A program made the translations under genes and the position numbers. A stretch of 64,000 nucleotides of DNA from Chloroflexota bacterium (GTDB lineage: Bacteria > Chloroflexota > Anaerolineae > JAAYZQ01): NCBI GenBank assembly GCA_018606645.1, contig JAGVRI010000005.1, positions 50,629 to 114,628 of the forward strand, read 5' to 3'. The notes under the pieces are model-generated. The model made no database searches. It saw nothing but the letters and a program-made list of their open reading frames with translations, and was not told where the DNA came from. Shown here in pieces: positions 4,138-25,044 of the stretch. The first letter of the stretch is position 1, and every line of letters begins with the position of its first letter.

Positions 4138-6105
4138 CTAGATCTCACGGCCAATTTTGGCTCCTTGGTAGATGGCATCAATGGCAAAGCCGGGTTGCGT
4201 GCAATCCCCAATTTCATGCATCTCAACGTCCAGTTTCTTGATCTCCTGGGCCAGGTCTCGATTCGGTCTGGCACCAACTGCCAGCACCACCGTGTCCACC
4301 GGGCCCAACGATGCCTTCCATGTCAGATCCAGGCCGGGTTCCTGGCGGGTGAGCAGGACCTGATGATCTTGGATCGCCTCCACTTTGGTCGAGGTCAGGA
4401 TTCTCACTCCCGCTTTGTCCAGGCGCTCCAGCAGAAAATGTTTGGCGTCCGGCAACATGTCAGGACACACAGCGTCCAGCATCTCGACGATGATTACCTT
4501 CTTGCCTCGCTCGCTCAAAAAGTCAGCCGTCTCTGCCCCGCACGAACCACCACCAACTACCACAACCCGTTTCCCTGTTTCTACCTTTCCGCTCAATACA
4601 TCATCCGATGTCACCACGTACTCCTGATCCGCTCCCGGAATGGGTGGGATGATAGGGCTTGCTCCGGTGGCCACAATGACCACATCAGGCTTGAGCGCGG
4701 CGACATCGTCTGCGGTGATGGTGCGTCCCATCTCAATCCGGGCGCCATGTTTGACCGCCTGATCGCGCAAATGCTCCACGACCTTGTAGAAATGCTGTTT
4801 GCACGGGACCTGAGACCCCAGATACCAACGTCCACCCAGGCGATCCTGCCTTTCGTATACGGTCACTTCATGCCCCCGCAATGAAGCCACCCGCGCCGCC
4901 TCCAGTCCGGCTGGTCCACCCCCGATCACCATGACTTTCTTGACCTTCTCGGCTGGCGTGATCGGGAACTCGCCTTCCCGCCCCGCCTCAGCATTGACCA
5001 GACAGATGGTATGGCGAACCTTGCGGTTGGGGTCATGGCAGCCCTTGTTGCAACTGATGCAGGGCATGATGTCATCGAGTCGTCCCTCTGCGGCTTTACG
5101 AGGCCATTCTGGATCGGCGATCAACGCCCGGCCCAGGTTGATGACATCGGCCTGGCCGTTCTGGAGGATCCGTTCGGCATGCTCGGGATCGGTGATGCGG
5201 CCGGCCACCATCACCGGCACGTCCACTTCGGCTTTGATCGCCTCCGCATAGGGCACACTGTGGCCCGGCTCCGAGTAATAGTTGGACACAGTCCAGTAGT
5301 ACGGAGCAATCCCCCGCGAGACGCTGATGGCCGCCGAACCTGCCTCCACCAGCATCCTGGCAATGACCTTCATATCCTCAAGGGTCAGGCCTCCCTCGAC
5401 CAGTTCGCTCCCGATAATCCGACACCACACCGGGACGCCGTCGCCGACTTGGGCCTTCACCCGCCGGAGCAGTTCCAAGGGAAACTTCATCCGACCATTC
5501 AGGTCGCCGCCGTACTCATCGCTCCGCTTGTTGGAAAAGGGCGACATGAACTGACATGGGAGATAGCCGTGGGCGTAGTGAAGCTCAATGGCATCAAAGC
5601 CGGCTTCGATGCAACGGCGCGCCGTCTGGGCATAGGCTTCGATGATCTGCTGGATCTCGGCGACCGATAGCTCCTTGGGTTCGTCGCTGTATTTCCCCCC
5701 TCTGGGGATCGGCGACGGCGCGAGTGGTTGTTGCCCTTCAATCGCCGCCCGAGTGGTCTGACGCCCGGCATGGTGCAGTTGAGCCGCGATCTTGGCGCCA
5801 TGGGCTTTCACTGCCTCCACCAGGCGCCTGTATCCAGGAATCAAACTGTCGTCATAGAGTCCTAGCTGACCCACCCCAAAGCGGGCCTGAGGATGCTGGA
5901 CGTAGATCGAACCGACAATCAACAGGCCGGCTCCCCCTTTGGCGCGCGCCTCCATAAAGTCGATCTGAGGCTGGGTCACGGTGCCCCGCTCATCTGACAT
6001 ATAGTTCGCCATCGGAGCCAGCGCAATCCGATTGTGCAATTCCATCGGCCCGATCTGGATCGGGCTGAACAAATGCTCAAATGCTTTACTCACACGTGCC
6101 TCCAA
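4138..6105 (-). CDS. 2,4-dienoyl-CoA reductase-like flavoprotein (OYE TIM-barrel plus C-terminal FAD/NAD(P)-binding domain)
   Basis: 655 aa. The N-terminal OYE signature is FDAIELHYAHGYLPCQF. The C-terminal half has Rossmann motifs (VMVIGGGPAGLEAAR, VVVVGGGSCGAE). Confidence 0.85.
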   Translation of the reverse strand: MEARVSKAFEHLFSPIQIGPMELHNRIALAPMANYMSDERGTVTQPQIDFMEARAKGGAGLLIVGSIYVQHPQARFGVGQLGLYDDSLIPGYRRLVEAVKAHGAKIAAQLHHAGRQTTRAAIEGQQPLAPSPIPRGGKYSDEPKELSVAEIQQIIEAYAQTARRCIEAGFDAIELHYAHGYLPCQFMSPFSNKRSDEYGGDLNGRMKFPLELLRRVKAQVGDGVPVWCRIIGSELVEGGLTLEDMKVIARMLVEAGSAAISVSRGIAPYYWTVSNYYSEPGHSVPYAEAIKAEVDVPVMVAGRITDPEHAERILQNGQADVINLGRALIADPEWPRKAAEGRLDDIMPCISCNKGCHDPNRKVRHTICLVNAEAGREGEFPITPAEKVKKVMVIGGGPAGLEAARVASLRGHEVTVYERQDRLGGRWYLGSQVPCKQHFYKVVEHLRDQAVKHGARIEMGRTITADDVAALKPDVVIVATGASPIIPPIPGADQEYVVTSDDVLSGKVETGKRVVVVGGGSCGAETADFLSERGKKVIIVEMLDAVCPDMLPDAKHFLLERLDKAGVRILTSTKVEAIQDHQVLLTRQEPGLDLTWKASLGPVDTVVLAVGARPNRDLAQEIKKLDVEMHEIGDCTQPGFAIDAIYQGAKIGREI

Positions 6106-6961: not shown

Positions 6962-7624
6962 CTATGCATAGCGCAACCGCCGTTCGAGCAGGGCAACGCC
7001 TTTGGAAGAAAGCCAGACGATGCACACATAGATCAGGGCCACCGTGGTATAGAACTCAAAGGGCCGCCAGGTCATCGTCGTCTGCACCTGCGCCGTGCGC
7101 ATCAGTTCCATCACGCCGAGCAGGGAGACCAACGAGGAGTCCTTGATGGCTCCCACCCACATGTTGCCGACCGGAGGGATAATGATCCGGATCGCCTGGG
7201 GCAGGATCACATACCGATAGGTCTGGGCAGTGGTCAATCCGATCGTCATCGCTGCTTCGGTCTGGCCCCGACCAATAGCCTGAATCCCCGAGCGAAAGAT
7301 CTCGGCCAGATATCCCCCGTACTGGGTCGACAGGCAGATTGCGGCGGCCAGAGTCGGCTCAAAATCGACTCCCGTCGCCATGGCGATGCCAAAATAGAGC
7401 CAGATCAGGTACACCATTTGCGGGATGCCGCGAAAGAAGTTGATGTAGAGGGCCGCCGGCACGCTCAGGAAGCGATACCTGGAGATGCGCAGTAGGGCGA
7501 TAAACAGGCCGATCAAACAGCCGAAGGAGAGCGCCAACACCGCCAGCATAAATGTATACCGCAACGAGGCCAACAGCACGTTCCACACTCGCAAGACCGG
7601 ACCAAAATCAGGGATATAGGGCAT
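6962..7624 (-). CDS. polar amino acid ABC transporter permease
   Basis: His/Glu/Gln/Arg/opine-family permease with the EAA-like loop (TQTEAAMTIGLTTAQTYRYVILPQA). Confidence 0.8.
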   Translation of the reverse strand: MPYIPDFGPVLRVWNVLLASLRYTFMLAVLALSFGCLIGLFIALLRISRYRFLSVPAALYINFFRGIPQMVYLIWLYFGIAMATGVDFEPTLAAAICLSTQYGGYLAEIFRSGIQAIGRGQTEAAMTIGLTTAQTYRYVILPQAIRIIIPPVGNMWVGAIKDSSLVSLLGVMELMRTAQVQTTMTWRPFEFYTTVALIYVCIVWLSSKGVALLERRLRYA

Positions 7625-7645
7625 CGCCGAGCCTCCTGTTCACCT

Positions 7646-8308
7646 CTAGCCAACCTTCAATCTTCGCTCAAGAACCTGGTTGCCGTAGAAAAAGACAAAG
7701 GTCAGGATGATATACAAAACGGCCGCCGTGGTATAGAACTCAAATGGCCGGAAATAGTCATTGGAATTCAGATACGCCGTGCGCATGATCTCCACCACGC
7801 CGATGACCGAGAGCAGGGAGGAATCCTTGACCATGGCGATCCACATATTCCCGATGGAGGGGAGGACAATGCGGATGGCCTGGGGCAGGATCACGTGCCG
7901 GTATGACTGCGTGGAGGTCAAGCCGATCGCCATCGCTGCTTCCCTCTGGCCACGGTCAATCGCTTGAATGCCCGACCGATAGATCTCGGCCAGGAACCCC
8001 GCATACTGGGTCCCCAGGGAAATGACCCCGGCGACGAACGGCCGAAAGTTCACATTGAGCAACATTGCCAGGCCATAGTACACCCAGAAGATGAGCACGT
8101 ACTGCGGCGCACCCTGGAAAAAGTTGATGTAGCCCTGGGCCGGCGTGTTCAAAATGCGCGATTTCGAAATGCGCATCAGAGCAATGATCAACCCCAGGAT
8201 GAGCGCAACGACCATCGCCACGGCAGACACGGACAGGGTCATCCGCACCGCCAGCAGGAATTCATCCATGTTATCCAAGACGACCTTTAAATCCAGCTTA
8301 TACCCCAT
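7646..8308 (-). CDS. polar amino acid ABC transporter permease
   Basis: Paralog of the previous permease (GQREAAMAIGLTSTQSYRHVILPQA). The start was trimmed to MGYKLDL, since the longer ORF to 8428 has no homologous N-terminus. Confidence 0.75.
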   Translation of the reverse strand: MGYKLDLKVVLDNMDEFLLAVRMTLSVSAVAMVVALILGLIIALMRISKSRILNTPAQGYINFFQGAPQYVLIFWVYYGLAMLLNVNFRPFVAGVISLGTQYAGFLAEIYRSGIQAIDRGQREAAMAIGLTSTQSYRHVILPQAIRIVLPSIGNMWIAMVKDSSLLSVIGVVEIMRTAYLNSNDYFRPFEFYTTAAVLYIILTFVFFYGNQVLERRLKVG

Positions 8309-8466
8309 CGGAACTCGCTTCGCTCCATCCCCAATACAAATGTGAGAACCACACCAGGTTGATGTCGGTGTTAGAGGCCTGGCTTTCCACCACGACCTGG
8401 GAAAGCCAAGCCTCCCCCAGGCGTCCAAGCGATTGACTACCGCCGACGAATCATGGTGCGTACGGC

Positions 8467-9366
8467 CTATTCCCAGGTGACCTCACCTCTCAGGGTCGGG
8501 CCGACGATCTTGTCATACAGGGCCGGCAGAGTGCCCCGATCCCAGTACCAGGCGAGCCAGGAATCCAGGTAGTGTAGGAAGCTATGCTCGCTCTTGCGCA
8601 CCGGGATGCAACCCCACTCTCGGGCGAGAAGGCCTTTGCTCTCATCGGGATAGCCGAGCACCTTGGTCTTTGGATGTTTGGCCGCAAAGGGCATTGCCAG
8701 GTACAATTCAATGACACAGCCATCGGCCCGGCCGGCCTCCACCTCCAGCATTACTTCCGGCACATTCAATGGCACGATCTCGGCCTGAGGGAATGCATCC
8801 CGGGCTCGGTACTCGGCCGAAGCTCCGATCTGGGCGGTGATCTTTTTGCCGGGCTTGTTTAGTTCCCGCCAATCGGTGGCCGTCTCGTCTGCTCGCACCA
8901 ACAGCCACTGGTCATAGGGCACATACCCTCTGGTGAATTCAAAGGTGAGCAGTCGGGAAGGTTTGTTCACAATCCCAACGAGGGCCGTGTCATATTTACC
9001 GGCGGCCACACCCGGCAGGATCGCCTCCCACTCGACATCCACCAGGTCGAGCTGCACCTCCAGGTCCTGGGCGAGCATCTTCATGATCTCAACGTCGTAG
9101 CCGGCCGGCTCGTTAGTCTGCGGGTCCCGGTACATCTCCGGCGGAAACTTGAGCGTGGTGGCGATGGTGATCTTGCCCCGTTTCCGGATCTGCTCAATGA
9201 TGTCCCCAAAGGCCCCCGCTGCTGCTTTGACCTCCGCCGCAGGGGCAGCAGCGCCCTCTGTTTCGGCCTTGGGTTTGCAGCCAGCCACCAGCCCTGCCGC
9301 CGCTGTCAGACCTACAGCCACCCCGGCCGTCTTGAGAAAATTCCTTCGATCAAGCTGTTCGTCCAT
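8467..9366 (-). CDS. amino acid ABC transporter substrate-binding lipoprotein
   Basis: Tat/lipoprotein-type N-terminus (RRNFLKTAGVAVGLTAAAGLVAGC) followed by a family-3 SBP fold. No ATPase gene is adjacent. Confidence 0.8.
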   Translation of the reverse strand: MDEQLDRRNFLKTAGVAVGLTAAAGLVAGCKPKAETEGAAAPAAEVKAAAGAFGDIIEQIRKRGKITIATTLKFPPEMYRDPQTNEPAGYDVEIMKMLAQDLEVQLDLVDVEWEAILPGVAAGKYDTALVGIVNKPSRLLTFEFTRGYVPYDQWLLVRADETATDWRELNKPGKKITAQIGASAEYRARDAFPQAEIVPLNVPEVMLEVEAGRADGCVIELYLAMPFAAKHPKTKVLGYPDESKGLLAREWGCIPVRKSEHSFLHYLDSWLAWYWDRGTLPALYDKIVGPTLRGEVTWE

Positions 9367-9619: not shown

Positions 9620-9982
9620 CTACTCCAGCTCTCGGTCGGAGCCGGGCAAGAACGCCGGCCCGTTCATCACCAGATAGGCCATGTGCCCATCAAACACATA
9701 GGGCACGCTGCGGGGGATGAACACCAGGTCCCCGGCCCTGACCTTGAACGGTGCCCCATCGCCTACCTGGAATTCACCATCCCCCTCGATGATATAGTAC
9801 ACCCGGTCACTCAGGTCACAGACCATCTTTTTGTGATGACCCCAGATTTTGACCCAGGTGACACTGATATCCTGGCTGTGTTGGGCGCGGTTCACGGCCG
9901 TCTTCATCACCAGTGGGTACCCTTCTTCTCGGATTTCCGGAATATCCTCCAGCCGAATCAGCATTTTGTTCTCCTTGACCAA
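9620..9982 (-). CDS. cupin-domain protein
   Basis: 120 aa with a two-motif cupin beta-barrel pattern (VYYIIEGDGEF ... GDLVFIPRSVPY). Confidence 0.55.
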   Translation of the reverse strand: MVKENKMLIRLEDIPEIREEGYPLVMKTAVNRAQHSQDISVTWVKIWGHHKKMVCDLSDRVYYIIEGDGEFQVGDGAPFKVRAGDLVFIPRSVPYVFDGHMAYLVMNGPAFLPGSDRELE

Positions 9983-9987
9983 ACGAA

Positions 9988-10602
9988 TCAGTTCCCTGCC
10001 AGAGGTTCTACTTCCATGATCACATGGTCCATTCGGACTGTCTGTCCCACAGCCGCCCGGATTTTCTTAACAATCCCCTCCCGGGGTGCCCGGATCACAT
10101 TCCGGGTCTTCATCGCTTCCAGGATGGCTACCCCGTCACCCGCTTTGACATTTTGGCCTTCTTGGACCAGGAATTCGACCAGCACCCCGGTCATAGGGCT
10201 GGTCACGGCACCAGCGCCGGCCTCCTCACGGCCTGGAACTCTGGGCCCGCCGAGAGTTGTCGCCGATATGGCCCGATCCTCTGGACGCCGTCGGTCCTCC
10301 CGCCTCAGCCCTTGCGGAATCCGCTCGCCGCTCACCCGGACCTCGTACCGATTCCCCTCGACGATCACCGTGTAGCCGTCTTCCCCAGGCTCCACCAGGA
10401 CCTCGTACGACCTGGGGCCGATCAACAACGAGAACAAGGATTCGCCAATGCGCTCCAGATGGGCGTCCCGTGGCTGATCGTTCACCATCACTCGGCCGTT
10501 TTGCTCGATGCGGATTCGATATTCCTCTCCGGCAAGAGTTGTAACATAGTTCACCGATCTCACGTCTCCTGTCATGTCTCTCACCCCATGGCTGCGGTCC
10601 AC
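9988..10602 (-). CDS. biotin carboxyl carrier protein (biotinyl domain)
   Basis: The C-terminus has the biotinylation motif (GDGVAILEAMKTRNVIRAP). The N-terminus has YRIRIE/YEVRV beta-hairpin repeats typical of small BCCPs. The true start may be the internal ATG at 10575. Confidence 0.8.
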   Translation of the reverse strand: MDRSHGVRDMTGDVRSVNYVTTLAGEEYRIRIEQNGRVMVNDQPRDAHLERIGESLFSLLIGPRSYEVLVEPGEDGYTVIVEGNRYEVRVSGERIPQGLRREDRRRPEDRAISATTLGGPRVPGREEAGAGAVTSPMTGVLVEFLVQEGQNVKAGDGVAILEAMKTRNVIRAPREGIVKKIRAAVGQTVRMDHVIMEVEPLAGN

Positions 10603-10611: not shown

Positions 10612-13600
10612 CTAACCGGGGATGATCCCACAGCGTCGTTCAATTCTCTTGGCCTCTCTGAGGCTGTAGAATTCGAGGCGGGCAATTAACTCATCCCGCA
10701 GTTGGGTGGCCGGAATGATCGCCTCAAAGAAGAACTCGCTGGCCATTGCGTAGGGATCGATATTGTCCTCATACTCGTCTTGCTTCGCCTGAATGAACGC
10801 CGGACGCTCCTCGGGCGGCAATTCCATGATCTTGTTATAGTAAATGGCGTTGATGGCTGCGGCTGGCCCCATGAGGGCCGGCTTGGCCGTGGGCAGAGCA
10901 ATGACCGCATCGGGGTTAATGGGAGCGCCAGACATGGCCAGGTATCCGCCTCCATAGGCCTTGCGCACGATGACACAGATGCGGGGCACCGTGGATTCCG
11001 AGACGGCGTAGAGGAATTTGGCGCCGTGGCGGATAATACCCTGTCGCTCCACCTGAGTGCCGATCATAAAGCCGGCAATATCATTCAGGAACAGCAGCGG
11101 GATGTTGAAGGCGTTGCAGATCCAGATAAAACGGGCGGCCTTGTCGGCCGAATCGGGAAAGATGACCCCCGCTTTGATCAACGACTGATTGGCGAGGATG
11201 CCCACCGAACGACCTCCCAGCCGGGCCAACCCGGTGATCATCTCCGGCGCAAACAGCTTCTTGTACTCCCACCAACTGCCTTCGTCAATGATCGCCTCAA
11301 TGAACTCATACATGTCAAACGGGATGCTCTCCCGGCTGGGGACGATCTCTTCGATCGGCCGGCCGGGCGCCGGGTCCCGGGGTTCGACCATCGGCGGCTT
11401 CTCCCGCCAGTTTTGGGGAAAATAGGAGAGGTATTTGAGGGCCGCATCCATCGCTTCCTTGTCATCAGCGACGAGCATGTCCCCCAGCCCGCTGACCTCG
11501 CAGTGCATCCGCGCGCCGCCCATCTCCTCCATCGTCACCTTTTCGCCGATGGCCATTTCGGCCATGCGCGGCGATCCCATATACACCGTGGCATTCTTGT
11601 CCACCATGATGGTCACGTCGCACAGCGCCGGAACATACGCCGATCCAGCGGGGGAGGGACCAAAGAGGATGCAGATCTGAGGGATGCGTCCGGAGAAGAT
11701 GATCTGGTTATAGAAGATATTGCCCCACGCATCCCGTCCTGCGTAGCAGTGGTGCTGGTCGTCAATGCGTGCTCCGGCGGAATCAATGAGATAGAGCAAC
11801 GGGATGCCCAGTTCGTCCGCCTTGCGCTGCATATAGGTCATCTTCTTGTAGCCAATCCGTCCCCAGGTCCCTGCCTTGACCGTCATGTCGTTGGCGATAA
11901 TGGCTACCTTCCGCCCCTCGATGGTGCCCAGACCGACGATCATTGCGTCGGCCGGCAGTCCCTCAGCGTAGCGGGCGAACAGCCCATCCTCTACAAAGGA
12001 GCCAGGATCCAACATGTATTCAATACGGTCCCGCACAAACATCTTGTTCTGTTCCGCGAGTTGTTTGTGGTACTTTTCCGGGCCGCCTTTATAGAGCGTC
12101 TCCATCCGCTGCAGAAGCTCCAGATGCTGAGGCGGTGGATTTTGGGATTGAGTCAGCGGCTTTTTTCTCGGCTCGGGACGCTCCTGGGGTTGGGCGGGCT
12201 GGATCTTTTCCATCCGTTCACCCTTCCTTTCACCGGCGGGGGATGGACCGGCCAGAACTTGTTGATGATGGACCAGCGTGGCAGTGAGAGCTGCGACTTC
12301 TTCCAGTTCTTTGCTTTCTACTCGGCTCAGCACAAAACTATCAAGAAACGAGGTATCATATACCCCTTGGACAAAGGACGGGGTCTCCATCACCTGCTGG
12401 TGGAACGGGATCGAGGTGGGGATGCCGACGATGACATATTCCCGCAACGCCCGACGCATCCGTCGGATGGCCTCCTCACGGCTATCTCCCCAGGCAATCA
12501 GCTTGGCCAGCAACGAGTCATAGTGGGGAGACACTTCGCAGCCCTCGTACAGGCCGCTGTCCACCCGAATTCCCGGACCACCGGGCTGGACCAAGGTCGT
12601 GATCCGGCCACTATGCGGAATGAAATCGTGAAAGGGGTCTTCGGCTGTGATCCGGCATTCGATGGCCCACCCCCGTGGCTGGATATCCGCTTGCTCGTAA
12701 CGCAACGGCTCCCCCGCCGCAATGCGGAGTTGTTCGACGACAATGTCCACCCCGGTCACACATTCTGTCACCGGGTGCTCTACCTGGAGCCGGGCGTTCA
12801 TCTCCAGGAAGTAGAAATTGCCCTCCTGATCCAGCAAGAACTCGACGGTCCCGGCGTTGACATACCCCGCGATCAATGCCGCACGCACCGCAATCTCTCC
12901 CATCCGGCTCCGTAGCTCGCTGTCTACGGTGGGGGAGGGGCATTCCTCGATCAGCTTCTGATGCCGTCGCTGGACCGAGCACTCCCGTTCCCCCAGGTAG
13001 ATGGCGTTGCCATGTCGGTCCACCAGAATCTGGACCTCGACATGATGGGGTTTCTGGATCGCTTTTTCCAGATAGACCCGGTCATCGCCAAAGGCGCTCA
13101 ATGCCTCGCCGCGAGCAGCGCCCAAGGTGCGGAGCAGCTCATCCTGGTTTTGAACCAGGCGCATGCCCCTGCCGCCTCCCCCGGCTGCGGCCTTGATAAA
13201 GAGCGGAAATCCGATACGATCGGCTTCGCTGACCAGTTCCTCATCACTCAGGTCTCGTTCCGTGCCGGGAACAATCGGCACTCCCGCCCGCTGCATGAGC
13301 TGCCGCGCCTTTACCTTGTCCCCCAGAGCGGCCATGGCCTGGGCGGGAGGGCCGATGAACACAATTCCTGCCTCCTCGCAGGCGGCAGCAAATTGGGGAT
13401 TCTCGGCCAGGAACCCATAGCCGGGATGAATGGCCTCCGCCCCGCTCTGGCGGGCGACCTCGATCAGCCGCTCGATGCGCAGATAACTCTCTCGAGCAGG
13501 GGCTGGACCGATATGGTAGCTCTCGTCGGCGTAACGGACGTGGAGCGCCGCCCGATCGGCGTCCGAATAGACCGCGACCGTCTGGACGCCCAACTCCCGG

Positions 13601-13674
13601 CAAGCCCGCATGACGCGGACCGCGATTTCACCCCGATTGGCAATCAGCACTTTTTTGAACATCCGATATCCCAT
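10612..13674 (-). CDS. acyl-CoA carboxylase with biotin carboxylase (ATP-grasp) fused to a PccB/AccD-type carboxyltransferase; no BCCP domain
   Basis: One 1020-aa ORF. Residues 1-450 are a biotin carboxylase (KVLIANRGEIAVRVMRACRELG, ATP-grasp). After a Pro/Gln-rich linker comes a carboxyltransferase (MFVRDRIEYMLDPGSFVE, MGGARMHCEVSGLGD). Confidence 0.85.
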   Translation of the reverse strand: MGYRMFKKVLIANRGEIAVRVMRACRELGVQTVAVYSDADRAALHVRYADESYHIGPAPARESYLRIERLIEVARQSGAEAIHPGYGFLAENPQFAAACEEAGIVFIGPPAQAMAALGDKVKARQLMQRAGVPIVPGTERDLSDEELVSEADRIGFPLFIKAAAGGGGRGMRLVQNQDELLRTLGAARGEALSAFGDDRVYLEKAIQKPHHVEVQILVDRHGNAIYLGERECSVQRRHQKLIEECPSPTVDSELRSRMGEIAVRAALIAGYVNAGTVEFLLDQEGNFYFLEMNARLQVEHPVTECVTGVDIVVEQLRIAAGEPLRYEQADIQPRGWAIECRITAEDPFHDFIPHSGRITTLVQPGGPGIRVDSGLYEGCEVSPHYDSLLAKLIAWGDSREEAIRRMRRALREYVIVGIPTSIPFHQQVMETPSFVQGVYDTSFLDSFVLSRVESKELEEVAALTATLVHHQQVLAGPSPAGERKGERMEKIQPAQPQERPEPRKKPLTQSQNPPPQHLELLQRMETLYKGGPEKYHKQLAEQNKMFVRDRIEYMLDPGSFVEDGLFARYAEGLPADAMIVGLGTIEGRKVAIIANDMTVKAGTWGRIGYKKMTYMQRKADELGIPLLYLIDSAGARIDDQHHCYAGRDAWGNIFYNQIIFSGRIPQICILFGPSPAGSAYVPALCDVTIMVDKNATVYMGSPRMAEMAIGEKVTMEEMGGARMHCEVSGLGDMLVADDKEAMDAALKYLSYFPQNWREKPPMVEPRDPAPGRPIEEIVPSRESIPFDMYEFIEAIIDEGSWWEYKKLFAPEMITGLARLGGRSVGILANQSLIKAGVIFPDSADKAARFIWICNAFNIPLLFLNDIAGFMIGTQVERQGIIRHGAKFLYAVSESTVPRICVIVRKAYGGGYLAMSGAPINPDAVIALPTAKPALMGPAAAINAIYYNKIMELPPEERPAFIQAKQDEYEDNIDPYAMASEFFFEAIIPATQLRDELIARLEFYSLREAKRIERRCGIIPG

Positions 13675-13685: not shown

Positions 13686-14012
13686 CTATCCCTCATCAGG
13701 GACAGGAATTTCCATACGCAACAGGGCGGTGGACATGGACTTGCCTGTCTGGTCGAAAAGCAAGGTGCGGGTGGCTCCCCCTCCCAAGGCATTGCGCAAC
13801 ACGATCTCCAGAGCATGGACCTTGGGGAGCGGATAGATCTCCACCGCCCCTTTCACCATATCGCCAAAATGGGCCTTGATCCGTTCGGGCGTCACCTCGC
13901 GGCGGATCAGTTCATACGCCTTCTCATCAAAGGCAAGCAAGCCGATGTTGCACACGTCCCCCTTGTCTCCAGAACGTGCATACGCCAGTTCACGAAGTTG
14001 TTTGGTGGCCAT
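13686..14012 (-). CDS. small AtuA-associated protein (DUF4387-like), probable C-terminal partner of the DUF1446 protein
   Basis: 108 aa with an ARSGDKGD...NIG motif reminiscent of the C-terminal domain of AtuA-family proteins. Homology was recalled from memory, not searched. Confidence 0.45.
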   Translation of the reverse strand: MATKQLRELAYARSGDKGDVCNIGLLAFDEKAYELIRREVTPERIKAHFGDMVKGAVEIYPLPKVHALEIVLRNALGGGATRTLLFDQTGKSMSTALLRMEIPVPDEG

Positions 14013-14024: not shown

Positions 14025-14465
14025 TTAATTGGCAGGTCGCTTACTCATCCATAGCTTGTAGATGCACACGACCACCGGTTGGCCGTGTTGATTGACGATC
14101 CGGTAGTCGAATCCGACAACGCCGGTGCCATCCTCCCGCTCTTTCTTTTCCACTGCCTCCATCTCCAGGTGCACCGTATCGCCGATAAAGACAGGCGCGA
14201 TGAACCGCACCCGATCCAGACCGTACAGAGCCAGGACTGTTTCCCGTTTGGCCGGTACCAGCCCGGTGGAGATGGACAGCACCAGCGCACCATGAGCGAT
14301 CCGCCGCCCGAAGGAGGTCTGAGCGGCGTACTCCTGGTCCGTATGGATCGAGTGCCAGTCGCCGCTGAGATAGGCAAAGTTCACCACATCCGCTTCGGTG
14401 ATGGTCCGTCCTTTTGTCACCCACTTCTGGCCGATCTCAATCTCGTCAAAGTATCGGTCTGGCAT
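14025..14465 (-). CDS. MaoC-like (R)-specific enoyl-CoA hydratase / hot-dog dehydratase
   Basis: 146-aa hot-dog fold (NFAYLSGDWHSIHTDQEYA ... RIAHGAL). Confidence 0.8.
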   Translation of the reverse strand: MPDRYFDEIEIGQKWVTKGRTITEADVVNFAYLSGDWHSIHTDQEYAAQTSFGRRIAHGALVLSISTGLVPAKRETVLALYGLDRVRFIAPVFIGDTVHLEMEAVEKKEREDGTGVVGFDYRIVNQHGQPVVVCIYKLWMSKRPAN

Positions 14466-14474: not shown

Positions 14475-15257
14475 CTATCCCCAGTTTGGTTTGCGCTTGT
14501 TGAGAAATGCATCCACCCCTTCGGCCACATCATCGCCCAGCATATAGACCACCCGGATGTTGCGCGCGAATTCGAGCGCTTCGTCATAGCCCATATCCGC
14601 CGTGGCGTAAAAGAGCCGCTTGCCCAACGCGATCGCAGCCGGCCCTTTTTCGGCCAGACTGGTTGCCAGTTCCATCGCCTCGTTCGACAGCGCATCGCGG
14701 GGCACCACCCGATTCACCAGACCGATCCGCAAGGCCTCTTCGGCATCGAGGATTCGGCCGGTCAAGGCCATCTCTAACGCCATCCGCTCGCCAACCACAC
14801 GGCGGAGCGCCGGCAAGATGATCATCGGAAAGAGGCCGATCCGGATCTCGGTGGTGCCCAACTTTGCATCATCGGCGGCAATGGCCATGTCACACAGGGC
14901 GACCAGACCGCACCCTCCGGCCAGGGCATACCCCTGCACCGCAGCGATGACCGGCGCGCGCATCGCCGGCACCAGGCGAAACAGCTCGATCCACGGTTCG
15001 GCGGCCTGCCAGTGGTCAAAGGCCGGAAGTTTCAGTTCCTCAGCAAACTCTTTCAGGTCTCCACCGGCTGAAAAATGGTCCCCTGCCCCCGAGATGACCA
15101 CGGCGCGCACCTCAGGGTCGGCATCTACGCCCCGCAGCGTCGAGGTCAGGGCATGGACCATCGCATAGTTCATCGCGTTCCGCTTTTCCGGGTGGCAAAG
15201 GGTCAAGCGTACGACGCGGCCGATCCTTTCCTGAAGGACCAGAGATTCTCCGCTCAT
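14475..15257 (-). CDS. enoyl-CoA hydratase/isomerase (crotonase family)
   Basis: Crotonase motifs (LTLCHPEKRNAM, ISGAGDHFSAGGDLKE, AAVQGYALAGGCGLVALCDMAIA). The start was trimmed to MSGESLV, directly after the upstream gene's stop. Confidence 0.85.
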   Translation of the reverse strand: MSGESLVLQERIGRVVRLTLCHPEKRNAMNYAMVHALTSTLRGVDADPEVRAVVISGAGDHFSAGGDLKEFAEELKLPAFDHWQAAEPWIELFRLVPAMRAPVIAAVQGYALAGGCGLVALCDMAIAADDAKLGTTEIRIGLFPMIILPALRRVVGERMALEMALTGRILDAEEALRIGLVNRVVPRDALSNEAMELATSLAEKGPAAIALGKRLFYATADMGYDEALEFARNIRVVYMLGDDVAEGVDAFLNKRKPNWG

Positions 15258-15259: not shown

Positions 15260-16624
15260 TTACACTTCTTCCACCACTACCTTGATCTGGATGGCATCGC
15301 GGGGGATGAGCGTCGGCCACAGAGAGATCACCGGACGCACCGGGAACGGGACGCCGAACGCGGTGCCAATCCCTCCCAAGGTCCATAGGTGGGTGGCCTC
15401 TCGGCGAACCAGGTCGGCCTCCTCAGGAGTGCGGAGCTTGGCGGCGATGCGCAGTCCGACTTCGTTCAGTTCCCCCGTAGGCCGGGGAGCGGTCCGTCCG
15501 TGCAAGGCATTCACGCCGACATAATCAAAGCGGATCTCGATCGGCTCCACTTTGATCCGGTGCTTCAGCCGCATGCGCACAATCTCTTCCGCCCGCTGTG
15601 CTTTTTCCAGCGCGTCGGGCCAGGAGAAGAGAAGGAGCCCCTCGGCGATATAGCCATCCCGATACCCGATGCAGAGCTTCAAGGTATCAGGTCGGGGCTT
15701 CCCCCGAAAGCCTTTCACCCGGACTCGGTTCTCACCCACCTCTTCCACCGTAACGTCACTCAGATCGGCGATGCCGTCCGGCATGTAGTAGTTGTACGGA
15801 TCGAGGACTTCGTACAACAGTTGTTCTTTGACGGTCCACTGATTGACGATCCCGCCGGTATCCGGCGCCTTGGTAATGATCGCCTCCGGGACCTCGTTCA
15901 CCTCGGCAATGGGGAAGCCGATCTTCCAGGCATCCTTCGCCTCGCGCCACTGGTTCGACCCTCCCCCCGTGCAAAAGCAGGCACATTCCAGGAGATGGCC
16001 GATGACGATGCCTCCCCCGATCTTGTCCCAGTAGCCATCTTCAAAGCGCCAGCCAAATTCGTGCATCAACGCCGCCACAAAAGGCGCACCATCGGAGATG
16101 CGGCCGGCGATGATATACTTGGCCCCGGATTGCAGCGCCTCCAGAATGCCGTCCGACCCGATGTAGGCGTTGGCTGCCACAATGTCCTGGCGGATGCGAT
16201 CGAGCCCTTCTTCCCCTGTATCCATGTTGACAAAGGGCACCCCCTCAGCCGCTAACCGGTCCAACTGGTCGAACACGTCATCGCCGCTGATGGTCGCCAC
16301 CTTCAGCCCCTTGAACCCCATCTTGCGGGCCAATTCAATGACCTGACGGCCTCCTTCCTCCGGATTGGCTCCCCCGGCATTGGTGATCATGGTGATGCCC
16401 TTCTCATAGGTAATGGGCAACAACGCTTCTGTCCAGGGGATCAGGTCGGGGATATAGCCATGTTTGGGGTTCTTGCTCTTGTAGCGCTGCAGAATGGCCA
16501 GTGTCAACTCGGCCAGGTGGTCCAGGCCAAGATAGTCAATGTCCCCTTTGGCCGCCACATCGATGGCCGGATCGAGCATGTCGCCCCAGTAGGCCGAACC
16601 ATTTCCTAAACGTACGGTCTTCAT
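15260..16624 (-). CDS. AtuA-like acyclic terpene utilisation family protein (DUF1446)
   Basis: 454 aa. The N-terminus (RLGNGSAYWGD ... DIDYLGLDHLAELTL) matches the DUF1446/AtuA family. Confidence 0.7.
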   Translation of the reverse strand: MKTVRLGNGSAYWGDMLDPAIDVAAKGDIDYLGLDHLAELTLAILQRYKSKNPKHGYIPDLIPWTEALLPITYEKGITMITNAGGANPEEGGRQVIELARKMGFKGLKVATISGDDVFDQLDRLAAEGVPFVNMDTGEEGLDRIRQDIVAANAYIGSDGILEALQSGAKYIIAGRISDGAPFVAALMHEFGWRFEDGYWDKIGGGIVIGHLLECACFCTGGGSNQWREAKDAWKIGFPIAEVNEVPEAIITKAPDTGGIVNQWTVKEQLLYEVLDPYNYYMPDGIADLSDVTVEEVGENRVRVKGFRGKPRPDTLKLCIGYRDGYIAEGLLLFSWPDALEKAQRAEEIVRMRLKHRIKVEPIEIRFDYVGVNALHGRTAPRPTGELNEVGLRIAAKLRTPEEADLVRREATHLWTLGGIGTAFGVPFPVRPVISLWPTLIPRDAIQIKVVVEEV

Positions 16625-16666: not shown

Positions 16667-17860
16667 TCAAGCGTCCACATGTACGATGGTTGCTTCCCCT
16701 TCGCCGATGCCGCCGCAGATGGCCACCAATCCCCATCCCCCGCCTCGCTTGTGCAAGGCATAGATTAGAGTCATAACCAGGCGCGCTGCGGTAGCCCCGG
16801 TCGGGTGACCGATGGCAATGGCGCCGCCGTTGACGTTGGTCTTGTCCCGAATGGCGGCCACCTTGGCCGGGTCCCCATCGCCCAGGATATAGGTAGACAC
16901 CAGCGGCATAGCAGCAAAGGCTTCATTGATCTCGATCAGGTCCATCTGATCAATGGTCATGCCGACCTGTTTCAAGGCCTTCTGGGCGGCGACCGCCGGA
17001 ATGCTGGCTAGCTTGTCCGGGTGTCCCGCCGCCATCGCCCAGGTTTTGATCGTGGCCAGCGGTTTGATGCCCCGTCGTTCGGCTTCGCCCCGGGTGGCGA
17101 GGACAAGCGCCGCAGCGCCGGTGTTCAGCCCCGGCGCATTGCCGGCCGTCACGGTCGGGCTCCCATACACCGTGGGAAGCTTGGCCAGCTTTTCCAGGGA
17201 GGTATCGGGGCGCACGCTTTCATCTTTGTCAAAAAGGATCGGCGGACCCTTGCGCTGCGGGACCTCGACCGGCATGATCTCGGACTGGAAAAAGCCCGCT
17301 TCCTGAGCAGCCAGACAGCGTTGATGGCTGCGCAGCGCCCAGAGGTCCTGCTCCTCCCGGCCAATGTTGTAGGCCACGGCCTCTTCACCGGCCTGCACGG
17401 CTCGGGCTTTGCCGGTGTACGGACAACTGATCACCAGTTGATCTTTGAGCACAATATCGCCCAATCGGTTCCCCCACCGCGCCGCGTGCAGGAAATAGGG
17501 CACCAGGCTCATGTTTTCGGTGCCGCCCGCGACGACCACTTGAGCGTCGCCAAGACGCAGAGACCGGGAAACCACGTTGATGGCAGTCAAGGATGAGCAA
17601 CATGCTCGATCGACGGTAAAGGCCAACGCCGTATCCGGCAGGCCGGCGCGCAGCGCCACCTGTCGGGCAATGGAGCGGTCAGAACCGGGCAAATTGACCC
17701 CCATTGCCAGCTCATCCACCTCTTCTGGCCGAATGTTGGCGCGGCGCAGGGCCTCCGCCACCACCATACCGCCCAGCTCTGGAAGCGTAAAATCTTTGAG
17801 GGTCCCCCCAAAGGCGCCAAAGGGAGTGCGAACCGCAGACAATACCACCACCTCGTTCAT
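16667..17860 (-). CDS. acetyl-CoA acetyltransferase (thiolase II)
   Basis: Thiolase motifs (VVLSAVRTPFG, VDRACCSSL, NVNGGAIAIGHPTGATAARL, CGGIGEG). Confidence 0.85.
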   Translation of the reverse strand: MNEVVVLSAVRTPFGAFGGTLKDFTLPELGGMVVAEALRRANIRPEEVDELAMGVNLPGSDRSIARQVALRAGLPDTALAFTVDRACCSSLTAINVVSRSLRLGDAQVVVAGGTENMSLVPYFLHAARWGNRLGDIVLKDQLVISCPYTGKARAVQAGEEAVAYNIGREEQDLWALRSHQRCLAAQEAGFFQSEIMPVEVPQRKGPPILFDKDESVRPDTSLEKLAKLPTVYGSPTVTAGNAPGLNTGAAALVLATRGEAERRGIKPLATIKTWAMAAGHPDKLASIPAVAAQKALKQVGMTIDQMDLIEINEAFAAMPLVSTYILGDGDPAKVAAIRDKTNVNGGAIAIGHPTGATAARLVMTLIYALHKRGGGWGLVAICGGIGEGEATIVHVDA

Positions 17861-17905
17861 ACGATCCTCCTATATCTCAGTCGCGTAGCATTGGCCCAGT
17901 CCAGC

Positions 17906-19138
17906 TTAGAGCACCCCAGCTTGCCTGAGGTCCTGGATCTGGGCCGGCGTGTAGCCCAATAGTTCCTGCAGAATTTCCTCCGTATGCTCCCCTAGACGTG
18001 GGGCAGGCCGGGCAATGGCCGTCATCTGGTTGGACATTTTGATCGGCGGACCCACCAGTTCCACCCGTCCGGCCACCGGATCATCCACTGCGACGAACGC
18101 CCGGCGCGCCCGGGCATGGGGGCATTCAAAAATCTCTTTTGCATTCTGAACTGGCCCCACGGGTAGCCCATGCTTCAGTAACCTGTCCACAACCTCCTGG
18201 GTCGTGTGGCTGGCAAACCAGCCCTCGACGATCGGCTTCAGAAACCCCTCCCGCATGTTCCTGGCCCGAGCTGGACCGGAATCGGTCTCACCCTCGATCC
18301 CGATGAGATCGGGACGTTCGATGGCTTCGCAGAAACGAGCCCAATCTCGTTCGGTGGGCACGACGATCGCGATCCAGCCATCCTGCGTCTGGAATGGACC
18401 CCACGGGGCGATGAACGGCTCCACCCCTCGCTCCAGGACCCGGCCGGTCAGAGAATAGGCAGTAAGCGATCGTTCAGCCAGTGAGAGGATGGCATCGTAC
18501 ATCGATACATCGATATATTGTCCCTTGCCGGTCTTGGTGCGCTCATACAGGGCAAACATGATGCCCTGCACCGCCAGTGCCCCTGAATAGAGGTCGCCCA
18601 GGGCAATCCCCAGCCAGGTGGGAGGACCACCGGCCTGGCCACAAGTGTACATCAACCCGCCCATGGCCTGGGCCACAATGTCATACGAGGGCCGGTCGGC
18701 ATAGATCCCTCTTAACTCTGGCATCGTGCCAAAACCACTGATGGAAACGTAGATCAACCCTGGGTTCAGGGGGGCCAGATCGCGATACCCTAACCCCAGT
18801 TTATCGGTCGCGCCGGGGCGCAGGTTATCCACGACCACATCAGAATTCCGGACCAGTTCTTTGTAAATCTCCTTGCCCTTGGGATCCTCCAGATTCAGGG
18901 TGATGCTGCGCTTGTTGCGGTTGAAGCGCATGAAATAGCCGCTGACCCGCTCCCCTGCTTCATTCTTGATCATGGGAGCCCCCTCGCGGGCCGAATCGCC
19001 GGATTTCGGCCTCTCCACTTTGATCACATCGGCCCCGCGGTCGGCCAGAGTCATGGTGCAATACGGACCTGCGACCTGTACTTCGTTGGCAATCACACGA
19101 ATACCAGCTAGAGGACCTTTCTGCTCGGTGAATGTCAT
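17906..19138 (-). CDS. CoA-transferase family III (CaiB/BaiF/Frc-like)
   Basis: N-terminus GIRVIANEVQVAGPYCTMTLADRGADVIKVERP plus the conserved Asp region. 410 aa. Confidence 0.85.
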   Translation of the reverse strand: MTFTEQKGPLAGIRVIANEVQVAGPYCTMTLADRGADVIKVERPKSGDSAREGAPMIKNEAGERVSGYFMRFNRNKRSITLNLEDPKGKEIYKELVRNSDVVVDNLRPGATDKLGLGYRDLAPLNPGLIYVSISGFGTMPELRGIYADRPSYDIVAQAMGGLMYTCGQAGGPPTWLGIALGDLYSGALAVQGIMFALYERTKTGKGQYIDVSMYDAILSLAERSLTAYSLTGRVLERGVEPFIAPWGPFQTQDGWIAIVVPTERDWARFCEAIERPDLIGIEGETDSGPARARNMREGFLKPIVEGWFASHTTQEVVDRLLKHGLPVGPVQNAKEIFECPHARARRAFVAVDDPVAGRVELVGPPIKMSNQMTAIARPAPRLGEHTEEILQELLGYTPAQIQDLRQAGVL

Positions 19139-19198
19139 CTTTCCTCCTCATCGAGTGATGTGTTTACAAATCGATCTGATTCCAAACTGTCCTTTTCC

Positions 19199-19960
19199 CT
19201 ACATCGCCGTCAGACCGCCGTCCACCGGCAGCGTAACTCCGGTGATGTAGGAGGACTCATCGGAAGCCAGGAATAGCGCCGCACGGGCGATCTCCTCGGG
19301 CTCTGCGACCCGGCCCATCGGAATGCGTGCCACCAATTCCTGCATCTTTTTCTCTGGATCGGGCGCGTGGTTGATAAAGCCCAGAAACATCGGGGTGCGC
19401 ACTTCGCTGGGCGCGATCCCATTCACCCGAATGTTGTATCGGGCATAATCGATCGCCATCTGCCGCGTCAGGGCCACCACGCCCCCCTTGGCTGCACTAT
19501 AAGGCGCCTGATTGGGAGATGCGACCAGCCCGCACATCGAGGCCATGTTGATCACTGACCCGCCCCCGCCGTTGATCATATGTGGAATGGCGTACTTGGA
19601 CAGCAAAAAGACACCTTTTAAATCAATTTCCATCGTCTTATCCCATACCTCTTCGGTGGCGTCCACCACCGAGGCAGGGATGGTAACCGCTGCATTGTTG
19701 ACCAGGATATCGATCCGGCCATATGCGTCAACGGTTGTCTGCACCAGCCGCTGCATATCCTCTGCGTTGGAAACATCGCTTTCGACAAAGAGGGCTTCCC
19801 CGCCATGCTGTTGGATCATGCGGACTGTCTCCTGCCCTCCCTCCGGAGCATAGTCAGCCACGACCACTCGGGCGCCCTCCTGGGCGAAGAGTAGGGCCGT
19901 GGCCCGGCCAATGCCGCTTCCTCCTCCGGTGACAATGGCTACCTTTCCTGCCAGTCTCAT
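19199..19960 (-). CDS. SDR-family oxidoreductase
   Basis: TGGGSGIGRA and NNAA motifs with a YSAAK catalytic motif. Confidence 0.85.
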   Translation of the reverse strand: MRLAGKVAIVTGGGSGIGRATALLFAQEGARVVVADYAPEGGQETVRMIQQHGGEALFVESDVSNAEDMQRLVQTTVDAYGRIDILVNNAAVTIPASVVDATEEVWDKTMEIDLKGVFLLSKYAIPHMINGGGGSVINMASMCGLVASPNQAPYSAAKGGVVALTRQMAIDYARYNIRVNGIAPSEVRTPMFLGFINHAPDPEKKMQELVARIPMGRVAEPEEIARAALFLASDESSYITGVTLPVDGGLTAM

Positions 19961-19975
19961 CTTAACCTCTTCCGG

Positions 19976-20746
19976 TCACGAGCTCCACGGTGAAGCCAGG
20001 ATCACTCCTCCGTCCACGTAGAGGATGACGCCGGTGATATAGTCGGCCTCGTCCGAGGCCAAAAAGACCACCGCATGGCCGATATCCCGAGGACTGCCAA
20101 AGCGTCGTAAGGGAATGCCGGCCCGGATCTTTTCGGCGGTTACAGGATCGGAAAGACATCCTTTGCTGCTGAGGCCGTTTTTGATCACCCCGGGCCCAAT
20201 GGCGTTCACATTGATGGAATACGGGGCCAGGTCCAGGGCCAGGGCTTTGGTGAGCATCAGAATACCCCCCTTGGAGGCGGCATAGTGAGGTTCGCCGGGG
20301 GCAGGCATTTCAGACATAATCGAGCCGATGTTGATGATCTTGCCCCCGGTTCCCCACTGGGCCATGTGCCGCGCCACCGCCTGGGAACAGAGCCACGCCC
20401 CTTTGAGATTGATGTCGAGGGTTTTGTCCCAGTCGGCCTCGCTGATCTCAAATACGGGGCGGATCAACTCGACGCCGGCATTGTTGACCAGGATATCGAT
20501 CTGCCCGGCCCACGCCAGCGTCCGCTCTACCATCTCGGTCACCGAGTCGGGATTGGACACGTCGGTGCGAACGACTAACGCCCGGCGGCCCAACTTCTGC
20601 ACTTCCTCGGCTACTGTCTGAGCCCCTTTCTCATCCAGGTCCGCCAGCACCACAGCCGCGCCTTCCTCGGCGAGACGAGTCACAATGCCCTTGCCGATGC
20701 CTCCTGCCGCGCCGGTGACGATGGCTACTTTGTCTTTGAGTCTCAT
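19976..20746 (-). CDS. SDR-family oxidoreductase
   Basis: TGAAGGIGKG and NNAG motifs with a YAASK catalytic motif. Confidence 0.85.
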   Translation of the reverse strand: MRLKDKVAIVTGAAGGIGKGIVTRLAEEGAAVVLADLDEKGAQTVAEEVQKLGRRALVVRTDVSNPDSVTEMVERTLAWAGQIDILVNNAGVELIRPVFEISEADWDKTLDINLKGAWLCSQAVARHMAQWGTGGKIINIGSIMSEMPAPGEPHYAASKGGILMLTKALALDLAPYSINVNAIGPGVIKNGLSSKGCLSDPVTAEKIRAGIPLRRFGSPRDIGHAVVFLASDEADYITGVILYVDGGVILASPWSS

Positions 20747-20759
20747 GAAATCCCTTTCT

Positions 20760-24350: not shown

Positions 24351-24355
24351 AGTTT

Positions 24356-25030: not shown

Positions 25031-25044
25031 ATGCCCGTCCTTCC

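Follow-up and report, generated by a model that had tools for sequence, protein, structure and literature searches.

A gene for a biotin carboxylase fused to a carboxyltransferase, with a separate biotin carrier, in an AtuA-type catabolic cluster of a Chloroflexota bacterium

The stretch analysed here (the window) comprises 64,000 nucleotides from a Chloroflexota bacterium (assembly GCA_018606645.1, contig JAGVRI010000005.1, positions 50,629 to 114,628), and its subject is a minus-strand gene at 10612-13674 that joins a biotin carboxylase (BC) to a carboxyltransferase (CT) and is followed by a separate gene for a biotin carboxyl carrier protein (BCCP). The open reading frame (ORF) is uninterrupted over 1020 codons and specifies one chain of 1020 residues, as read from the ORF and its translation, Pfam, 13 clusters of homologous proteins and an AlphaFold2 model; an alternative start lies at ATG 13662, from which the product begins MFKKVLIANRGE. 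The sequence-only reading of this DNA had described a BC and a CT in one ORF lacking a biotinyl domain, and ORF, Pfam and model all agree with it. The domain scan that it had suggested returned every family in the order expected: Biotin_carb_N (PF00289, residues 5-114, E 4e-49), CPSase_L_D2 (PF02786, residues 119-325, E 1e-75) and Biotin_carb_C (PF02785, residues 339-445, E 1e-41), then Carboxyl_trans (PF01039, residues 541-1014, profile positions 4-489 of 493, E 6e-143). The ATP-grasp BC domain (residues 1-446; positions 12337-13674) passes the cut-offs of two NCBIfam biotin-carboxylase models (656 bits to accC), is 54% identical to solved BCs with TM-scores per target of 0.95-0.97, and holds all of the catalytic motifs: GGGGRGM (165-171), ECSVQRRHQK (231-240), EMNARLQVEHPVTE (291-304) and ECRITAEDP (339-347). 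The CT domain (residues 515-1020; positions 10615-12132), assigned from PF01039, scores to solved structures and a neighbour-joining tree to a YngE-like clade discussed below, carries the glycine-rich motifs GPSPAGSAYVPA (672-683) and KAYGGGY (905-911). Biotin_lipoyl (PF00364) has no match at E<=0.01 in the 1020 residues. Four antisense ORFs over the region (737, 291, 280 and 221 residues) match no Pfam family.

What joins the two halves is a helix followed by a linker. In the AlphaFold2 model (66 sequences; mean pLDDT 88) both domains exceed 90, and confidence is low only in the linker, falling below 50 at residues 476-504. The helix (residues 455-474; positions 12253-12312) is amphipathic, present in the model, and its pattern E..E.AA..A.L.HH is kept in the alignment of 14 fused proteins. 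The Pro/Gln/Glu/Lys-rich segment after it (residues 475-514; positions 12133-12252) varies from 31 to 49 residues among the 14 fused homologues, with zero conserved columns and an enrichment in Pro, Gln, Glu, Lys, Ser and Ala; in the model it is a flexible tether. A degenerate biotinyl domain hidden in this linker was considered and ruled out, the linker being too short, disordered and unconserved, and no MKM-type motif was found in its roughly 40 residues, which are predicted to be disordered. Two observations would have spoken against a genuine fusion, an interruption of the frame between the halves (stop or frameshift) and a concealed biotinyl domain; neither was made.

The carrier is encoded directly downstream on the same strand, where the sequence-only reading had placed a stand-alone BCCP of 204 residues at 9988-10602. 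The carrier and its EAMKT motif stand (PF00364 at residues 133-197 of the ORF as listed, E 6e-18); its length and start probably do not. The listed GTG start at 10602 is probably wrong, and ATG 10575, giving 195 residues (9988-10575), is likelier because of a GGGGTGAG ribosome-binding site and because the closest homologues are 195 residues long. This start leaves 36 nt between the fusion gene and the BCCP gene. An AlphaFold2 model of the BCCP from 61 sequences consists of a nine-stranded beta domain (residues 8-83; positions 10327-10554; pLDDT ~88), a disordered 35-residue arm (84-118) and the biotinyl domain (119-195; positions 9991-10221), in which Lys156 (codon 10108-10110) lies within EAMKT; L152, E153, M155 and K156 are invariant in the 61-sequence alignment.

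A further feature of the subunit plan lies in the N-terminal domain of this carrier. In the alpha subunits of propionyl-CoA carboxylase (PCC) and 3-methylcrotonyl-CoA carboxylase (MCC), BC, BCCP and a BC-CT interaction (BT) domain between them share one chain; the BT domain is a long helix inside an eight-stranded barrel and docks alpha onto beta (PMC4673880). With Foldseek, the whole 195-residue BCCP matches the BT-BCCP part of PCC alpha over its full length (6ybp_G, E 1e-11, 186-202 columns). The profile PF18140 (PCC_BT) matches the BCCP N-terminal domain weakly here (E 0.045) and clearly in the homologue P0454 (E 9e-8), in both cases only at profile positions ~34-126, which we read as the beta-barrel part. 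As modelled, then, the BCCP begins with half of a BT domain, its beta-barrel. The BC-bearing chain holds no such barrel (Pfam and model). When the fusion is aligned by Foldseek to human PCC alpha, the alignment reaches 498 columns, some 50 past the BC domain, the post-BC helix aligns to the start of BT, and the stand-alone BC P0121 of the same clade has the same C-terminal extension, aligning to fusion residue 472. The BT helix missing from the BCCP thus probably sits on the BC chain, at residues 455-474. Joining this helix in silico to the BCCP barrel did not improve the PCC_BT score (E 0.06 vs 0.045), which leaves structure alignment as the sole basis of the helix assignment. Compared with PCC and MCC alpha, the chain here would be broken inside BT, leaving the helix attached to BC-CT and the barrel to the BCCP, and the BC is joined covalently to the beta (CT) part rather than to the BCCP. 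Residues 453-494 of P0121, a Chloroflexota protein, also match the acyl-CoA carboxylase epsilon-subunit model weakly (E 0.014), which may relate to the proposed helix standing in for part of the BT domain.

Adjacent BC and CT genes only a few bases apart are common in Bacteroidota, and in one short related contig, L117, the BC half lies in two frames; a frameshift, a lost stop codon, a chimeric assembly or read-through of neighbouring genes could in such settings mimic a fusion. We consider this explanation very improbable for the present gene. In a search of 5.8 billion proteins (90%-identity clusters from ENA, JGI, NCBI and Logan), the same ORF recurs in 13 clusters that are 74-94% identical to the fusion, cover its full length and share its Pfam architecture, and they come from all four data sources. 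Three loci, L001 (on a 568-kb contig), L004 (an Anaerolineales metagenome-assembled genome) and L094, show a single ORF with the gene order of the window, and fused homologues lie on long contigs of 568 kb, 70 kb and 33 kb. Such recurrence excludes frameshift or misassembly. Stops and frameshifts were also sought in independent homologues and none was found, the junction is an in-frame stretch of 31-49 residues of variable sequence and no short read-through, and the fused BC halves are monophyletic.

The fusion is nevertheless rare. A scan of one genome per species, covering 185,579 species genomes, gave 80 loci in which both halves appeared to be covered, and three more were added by exact protein look-up. 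When the ORFs of these 83 loci were checked, BC and CT proved to lie in one ORF in four, with L004 alone coming from the genome scan. The first impression from that scan, that fusions are common in Flavobacteriia and Bacillales, was dropped after the ORF check, which revealed adjacent separate genes: BCCP-BC-CT in Bacteroidota, CT-BC-BCCP in Chloroflexota and BC-BCCP-lyase-hydratase-CT in Bacillales. The architecture had been called unusual from the sequence, and this is borne out by the four loci in 83 and by the searchable literature, in which we found no description of a BC-CT fusion with a free carrier. A 50%-identity representative library held no representative with the fused architecture, against the 13 clusters of the 90% collection, and only P0221 (below) turned up there; the family is missing because it is hidden under single-domain representatives, and hence no prevalence estimate is given. 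Multi-domain fusions in general may be concealed in this way in such libraries.

Other BC-CT fusions lacking a BCCP, for which a search had been proposed, do exist. P0014 (L003, 10001-13572) also has 1020 residues and no biotinyl domain, with the reverse order CT-BC, and is an unrelated fusion; the 170-residue BCCP after it has the same BT-barrel-like N-terminus, and L003 comes from the same metagenome sample as L001. P0015 (L002, 5662-8938) is an independent BC-CT fusion, 40% identical, with an MmdA-like CT; it adjoins genes for a methylmalonyl-CoA mutase (MCM), a B12-binding subunit, MeaB and a glyoxalase-type epimerase, and is followed by an 82-residue peptide in which an OadG-like EELVAVLAAAIAA motif occurs. 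P0015 comes from one short Logan contig only, where a lost stop codon is possible. P0221 is a further fusion lacking a biotinyl domain, in the clade of proteins like the single-chain long-chain acyl-CoA carboxylase (LCC). These unrelated fusions indicate that the arrangement arose more than once, and by this comparison of sequences BC-CT without carrier is both rare and recurrent. Among solved structures, only the chains of LCC (PDB 4rcn) and eukaryotic acetyl-CoA carboxylase align over both halves of the fusion (Foldseek E 4e-77); as in the fusion, BC and CT share one polypeptide with BC N-terminal. They differ in placing BT and BCCP between BC and CT, where here there is a 40-residue disordered tether and the BCCP has its own gene; identity is only 29%, and the BC and CT halves of the fusion belong to other clades. 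PF00364 was found in the LCC-like proteins P0123, P0148, P0156, P0170, P0177 and P0213.

The fusion gene lies within a 23-kb co-directional string on the minus strand, in which spacers are mostly 2-67 nt. Upstream in the direction of transcription come an old-yellow-enzyme (OYE)/2,4-dienoyl-CoA-reductase-like flavoenzyme (21597-23552) and three short-chain dehydrogenases/reductases (SDRs; 19199-19960, 19976-20746 and 20760-21533), both assigned by domain matches and by synteny with L001, L004 and L084. They are followed by a family III CoA-transferase (17906-19138; PF02515, E 7e-119), which scores 338 bits, under the model cut-off, to the NCBIfam succinyl-CoA:mesaconate CoA-transferase, and by a thiolase (16667-17860; PF00108/PF02803). 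Then, with gaps of 2-36 nt between one gene and the next, come a 454-residue AtuA large subunit (15260-16624; PF07287 over its full length, E 1e-135), an enoyl-CoA hydratase of the crotonase family (14475-15257, its start corrected to ATG 15257; PF00378, E 6e-60), a MaoC-type (R)-hydratase (14025-14465; PF01575, E 3e-31), a 108-residue ferredoxin-like AtuA small subunit (13686-14012; PF23544, E 1e-28) that ends 11 nt upstream of the fusion gene, the fusion gene itself, the BCCP gene and, 5 nt beyond it, a cupin-domain protein (9620-9982; PF07883) kept in L001, L084 and L087. The Atu/Liu-like context noticed earlier is therefore real: split AtuA, enoyl-CoA hydratase, MaoC, thiolase, CoA-transferase and SDRs surround the gene and are kept in its relatives. 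The bioY transporter gene said to adjoin the carboxylase is real too (590-1249) but not adjacent, closing the same-strand string 9 kb downstream. Wherever the sequence of a variant locus includes the upstream flank, the gene immediately before the CT is AtuA-small. AtuA is split into a 454-residue and a 108-residue gene, with the hydratase genes between them, in every related locus, and this split parallels the two 'AtuA-like lyase' genes thnQ and thnS of anaerobic naphthalene degraders.

Searching with the CT half alone brought out unfused CTs of 82-88% identity, from loci in which this cluster has another source of carboxyl groups. Unfused CTs 81-89% identical to that of the fusion occur with the same cluster in L084/L085, L086, L095, L096, L098, L099 and L107, and no BC is present in the sequence of any of these. 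Between MaoC and AtuA-small, L084/L085, L086, L095, L098 and L107 have instead a 451-residue gene with HMGL-like and PYC_OADA domains (the 5S/OadA-type gene; 8274-9629 in L084, 8252-9604 in L086), whose product scores 540 bits to OadA (2nx9), 472 bits to transcarboxylase 5S (1rqb) and 750 bits to a PycB-domain model. A short BCCP of 73-81 residues is found in L084, L086, L096 and L099; in L096 and L099 the sequence does not extend far enough to include the 5S gene. With a 5S-type gene, a CT and a short BCCP, the sister loci encode the subunit set of a transcarboxylase, and they match that of methylmalonyl-CoA:pyruvate transcarboxylase (12S, 5S, 1.3S) in having a 12S-family CT, a 5S-type subunit and a 73-81-residue carrier. 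The window differs from that enzyme in its ATP-dependent BC, and tblastn with the 5S-like protein of L084 found no 5S-type gene in it. A third variant is seen in L088 (Armatimonadota) and L089 (Anaerolineae), whose CTs are 71% and 74% identical, respectively: here the AtuA-hydratase-AtuA-small-CT core is accompanied by a separate BC of 445-450 residues and a BCCP of 70-76 residues. With fused BC, separate BC or 5S in the same cluster, the CT and its catabolic partners are the constant and the donor module is interchangeable; judged by sequence and gene order, the conserved AtuA-type catabolic cluster of Anaerolineae and their relatives admits three alternative donors, of which the fusion is one.

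Because the sister loci show that a cluster BC is dispensable for this CT, one may ask whether the fused BC is a decayed or regulatory remnant and the CT draws on another donor, acting for instance as a decarboxylase or transcarboxylase. This we regard as highly unlikely: the BC catalytic motifs are all intact, the BC halves are 72-94% conserved and modelled with high confidence as ATP-grasp domains, and the 5S-type gene of the sister loci has no counterpart in the window. In L004 a second set lies 3.7 kb downstream of the fused carboxylase (16817-20773), made up of an MmdA/12S-like CT (806 bits to TIGR01117), a 5S-like gene and a BCCP, beside an MCM gene; from its composition it looks like a classical transcarboxylase or decarboxylase set. 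Its CT is 33% identical to the fusion CT, and its 5S-like gene is 66% identical to the sister 5S gene, which suggests that the 5S-type subunit was recruited in parallel.

The halves of the fusion have different histories. In neighbour-joining trees, the only kind built, the fused BC halves make up one monophyletic group, nested among stand-alone Chloroflexota BCs of CT-BC-BCCP operons beside MCM (62-70% identity), whereas identity to the BCs of L088 and L089 is only 54-55%. BCCPs from these PCC-type Chloroflexota operons share 32-40% identity with the N-terminal domain of the present carrier. The CTs of the fused and 5S-type loci group closely together within the CTs of AtuA clusters; outside these come first the actinobacterial CTs and then those of the Bacillus YngE type, and PCC-type CTs are distant. 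The phylogeny of the CT domain that had been called for thus sets this CT apart from the PCC-type clade. Taken together, BC nesting, BCCP likeness and CT position in trees and synteny show that the enzyme is a chimera of the resident CT of the AtuA cluster with a BC and a long BCCP recruited from a Chloroflexota PCC-type system. The source of the BC half and of the long BT-barrel BCCP is the three-gene archaeal/Chloroflexota-type carboxylase (CT, a BC of ~500 residues and a BCCP of 165-190 residues), in which the BC has the same C-terminal helix extension (P0121). That type differs in having BC and CT separate, in the order CT-BC-BCCP, with a true PCC-type CT and an operon beside MCM.

What the CT acts on is harder to read. 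The sequence-only reading had called it PccB-like; as a statement of orthology this does not hold, since the CT scores 287-351 bits to solved PCC/12S proteins where a true Chloroflexota PCC-type CT scores 590-716 bits to the PCC group (and 211-256 to MCC-lineage proteins and the beta subunit of geranyl-CoA carboxylase, GCC), and it belongs to a separate clade. Scores of the fusion CT to MCC-lineage proteins are 257-293 bits, and 220 to GCC beta (5ikl). It does not group with the characterised MCC or GCC beta subunits, scoring no higher to them than to the PCC group, and this profile does not speak for gamma-carboxylation, nor does it decide between the alpha and gamma positions. Identity to Chloroflexota PCC-type CTs is 35-37%; the nearest cultured relatives are YngE of B. 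amyloliquefaciens (55.5%) and actinobacterial CTs (60-63%; R. ruber 60%). We place the CT in a YngE-like clade, which is operational and not a curated family, defined by clustering with Bacillus YngE and the actinobacterial CTs, apart from PCC-type CTs, at 50% identity or more. Among NCBIfam models only mmdA matches the CT, below its cut-off, and AtuA is likewise not resolved.

YngE belongs to YngE/YngH/YngHB of Bacillus, a putative MCC, and no characterisation of YngE was found in the searchable literature. That system likewise consists of a BC, a small BCCP and a single-chain CT; YngE has the same intermediate profile of scores to solved proteins, both CTs being roughly equidistant from the solved PCC and MCC beta subunits, and its gene stands, as here, beside an enoyl-CoA hydratase and a C-C lyase. 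It differs in having three separate genes, 3-hydroxy-3-methylglutaryl-CoA (HMG-CoA) lyase instead of AtuA and a minimal 70-residue BCCP, and its BC, YngH, shares only 52% identity with the BC half of the fusion. Hydratase and lyase are in fact neighbours of this CT clade in every locus examined. The Bacillus yng operon comprises an acyl-CoA dehydrogenase, an AMP-ligase, BC, BCCP, HMG-CoA lyase, enoyl-CoA hydratase and CT; the hydratase is directly upstream of the CT in eight Bacillales loci; Carbonactinospora has HMG-CoA lyase, an alpha subunit, hydratase and CT; and in the other loci of the clade the lyase is of AtuA type, encoded by the two AtuA genes. This adjacency of hydratase and lyase is a feature of the MCC/GCC lineage, found here (enoyl-CoA hydratase, MaoC and the two AtuA genes directly upstream) as well as in the YngE-clade relatives. 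For the AtuA-like ThnQ/ThnS, a review citing unpublished results reports cleavage of an acyl-CoA with a tertiary alcohol, by analogy to HMG-CoA lyase, with a 3-oxoacyl-CoA as product (PMC12016498).

The atu cluster of Pseudomonas offers a parallel in gene content, since AtuA, a crotonase-type hydratase, SDRs and a biotin carboxylase/carboxyltransferase occur together there as here, and the logic proposed is shared: a 3-methyl branch is carboxylated and hydrated, and acetate is cleaved off. In its geranyl-CoA carboxylase, AtuF combines BC, BT and BCCP, and the beta subunit AtuC, of the MCC/GCC lineage, is a chain of its own (PMC4673880). The present cluster departs from it in that AtuA is encoded by two genes and the CT reaches only 220 bits to GCC beta (5ikl); an AtuD-type acyl-CoA dehydrogenase was not found in it.

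Having carboxylase, hydratase, lyase and thiolase in a row fits the Liu/Atu logic for removal of a 3-methyl branch, and for this reason we somewhat favour gamma-carboxylation of a 3-methyl-2-enoyl-CoA. A branched acyl-CoA substrate, as had been suggested from the sequence, is the best-supported reading of the gene context. The fusion and BCCP genes together probably encode a working ATP-/bicarbonate-dependent, biotin-dependent acyl-CoA carboxylase of unusual subunit plan for a 3-methyl-branched enoyl-CoA. In such an enzyme the CT halves would form the usual hexameric core, with each BC tethered to the CT N-terminus by the ~40-residue linker; helix 455-474 would insert into the BCCP barrel, rebuilding the BT domain and anchoring the carrier, and the biotinyl domain on its own 35-residue arm would swing between the BC and CT sites. 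The methyl branch of the 3-methyl-2-enoyl-CoA would be carboxylated as in 3-methylcrotonyl-CoA and geranyl-CoA carboxylase, the adjacent hydratase would produce the tertiary alcohol, the two-subunit AtuA-type lyase would yield acetate and a 3-oxoacyl-CoA, and thiolysis would follow. Whatever is said here of function beyond domain content, synteny and phylogeny, we infer.

Several observations weigh against this picture. The CT scores slightly higher to alpha-carboxylating PCC/12S proteins than to MCC-lineage or GCC proteins, and no acyl-CoA dehydrogenase that could make the 2-enoyl-CoA lies in the 23-kb string; in the scan of long minus-strand ORFs from 590 to 32674, the acyl-CoA dehydrogenase and AMP-ligase families (AtuD- and AtuH-type) had no match, and in their stead the family III CoA-transferase and OYE-type flavoenzymes occur. 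The biotinylation motif is EAMKT and not EAMKM, with Thr where Met is usual. The helix-in-barrel assembly is deduced from alignment lengths and profile coordinates, not from a model of the complex. Neighbour-joining trees are approximate, and the CT tree interleaves fused and 5S variants, so it gives no direction for the swap. For neither this protein nor YngE nor the cluster's AtuA proteins did the searchable literature yield any biochemistry. Finally, a large subunit of the MCM family (2426-4099), 6.5 kb downstream of the fusion, is kept in the window, L001, L004, L084, L088 and L089, that is, in all variants with long enough flanks, and would suit a propionyl-CoA carboxylase too.

This last point leads to the main alternative: the enzyme may carboxylate propionyl-CoA, or another saturated short acyl-CoA, at the alpha carbon and deliver methylmalonyl-CoA to that mutase, clearing thiolase-released propionyl-CoA and regenerating succinyl-CoA for the family III CoA-transferase. 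The CoA-transferase does resemble succinyl-CoA-dependent enzymes; the best solved matches of the CT are PccB (351 bits), 12S (329) and MmdA-type (317), mmdA is its only NCBIfam match, and 5S, CT and small BCCP in the sister loci are the subunit set of methylmalonyl-CoA:pyruvate transcarboxylase. Against this, the CT is far from the true PCC-type CTs by identity and by score, and related genomes have a separate PCC- or 12S-type set beside MCM (L004 and the Chloroflexota loci). The CT gene is tied to AtuA, hydratase and AtuA-small in every variant, and in the wider clade it stands beside hydratase and lyase, not MCM. Nor does the cluster hold a methylmalonyl-CoA epimerase or a B12-binding small subunit; neither these nor MeaB were seen near 2426-4099, and the MCM-family subunit could be a different acyl-CoA mutase. 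We therefore hold the propionyl-CoA alternative to be unlikely, though a serious contender, and keep to gamma-carboxylation of a 3-methyl-2-enoyl-CoA. Much less plausible is a housekeeping acetyl-CoA carboxylase that supplies malonyl-CoA for fatty-acid synthesis and lies in the cluster by chance. The NCBIfam name for the BC half is 'acetyl-CoA carboxylase biotin carboxylase subunit', JGI annotations of homologues read likewise, and the nearby BioY suggests an important biotin enzyme; these names are generic for any BC, however, the gene is embedded with spacers of 2-36 nt in a catabolic string kept across phyla, and replacement of the BC by a 5S-type subunit in sister genomes would be unlikely for the main source of malonyl-CoA.

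Biotin-dependent carboxylases are textbook modular enzymes, and a BC-CT chain with a free carrier was not found among the combinations of parts that reviews list. The fusion does not alter the chemistry expected of the family. As a tentative joint reading, possible but in our view doubtful as a whole, the locus may represent an undescribed holoenzyme plan in which BC is tethered to CT, BT is split across chains and the donor is swappable between an ATP-dependent BC and 5S, together with a third, gamma-carboxylating CT lineage if 3-methyl-2-enoyl-CoAs are used, and with a two-subunit AtuA as lyase partner. If true, a gamma-carboxylating YngE-like CT would blur the split between alpha (PCC/ACC) and gamma (MCC/GCC) carboxylases, and such carboxylases would have in the two-subunit AtuA proteins the lyase partner long sought for them. 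The near-identical catabolic clusters, which load the same CT by a fused BC, a separate BC or an ATP-free 5S-type donor, amount to a natural experiment in how donor module, carrier and CT recognise one another and in what part BT barrel and helix play. The system could further serve as a compact two-gene carboxylase for engineering, and as a handle on AtuA-type lyases and the YngE-like CT clade, for neither of which the searchable literature holds a characterised member.

After the cupin gene, the string continues in the order of transcription with an amino-acid-type ABC transporter (a binding protein and two permeases, 6962-9366), an SDR, a second OYE-type flavoenzyme (4138-6105), the MCM-family large subunit, a thiolase at the distal end (1246-2448) and BioY, all on the minus strand. 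The transporter has no ATPase gene here; in L001 (14657-18015) and L084 an ATPase lies between binding protein and permeases. A second, complete amino-acid-type transporter set is found at 23577-26813. The substrate may derive from a branched acid of amino-acid origin, to judge from these transporters, from an aminotransferase encoded at 26939-28099 and from the 2-oxoacid dehydrogenase of L088. The cluster is also flanked by two paralogous flavoenzymes combining OYE and pyridine-nucleotide-disulphide-oxidoreductase parts (2,4-dienoyl-CoA-reductase architecture) and by four SDRs, which hint at a more complex substrate. Elsewhere in the window, GC content rises to ~0.65 at 46001-52000, compared with ~0.59 over the remainder, and AT skew is -0.26 at 46-48 kb.

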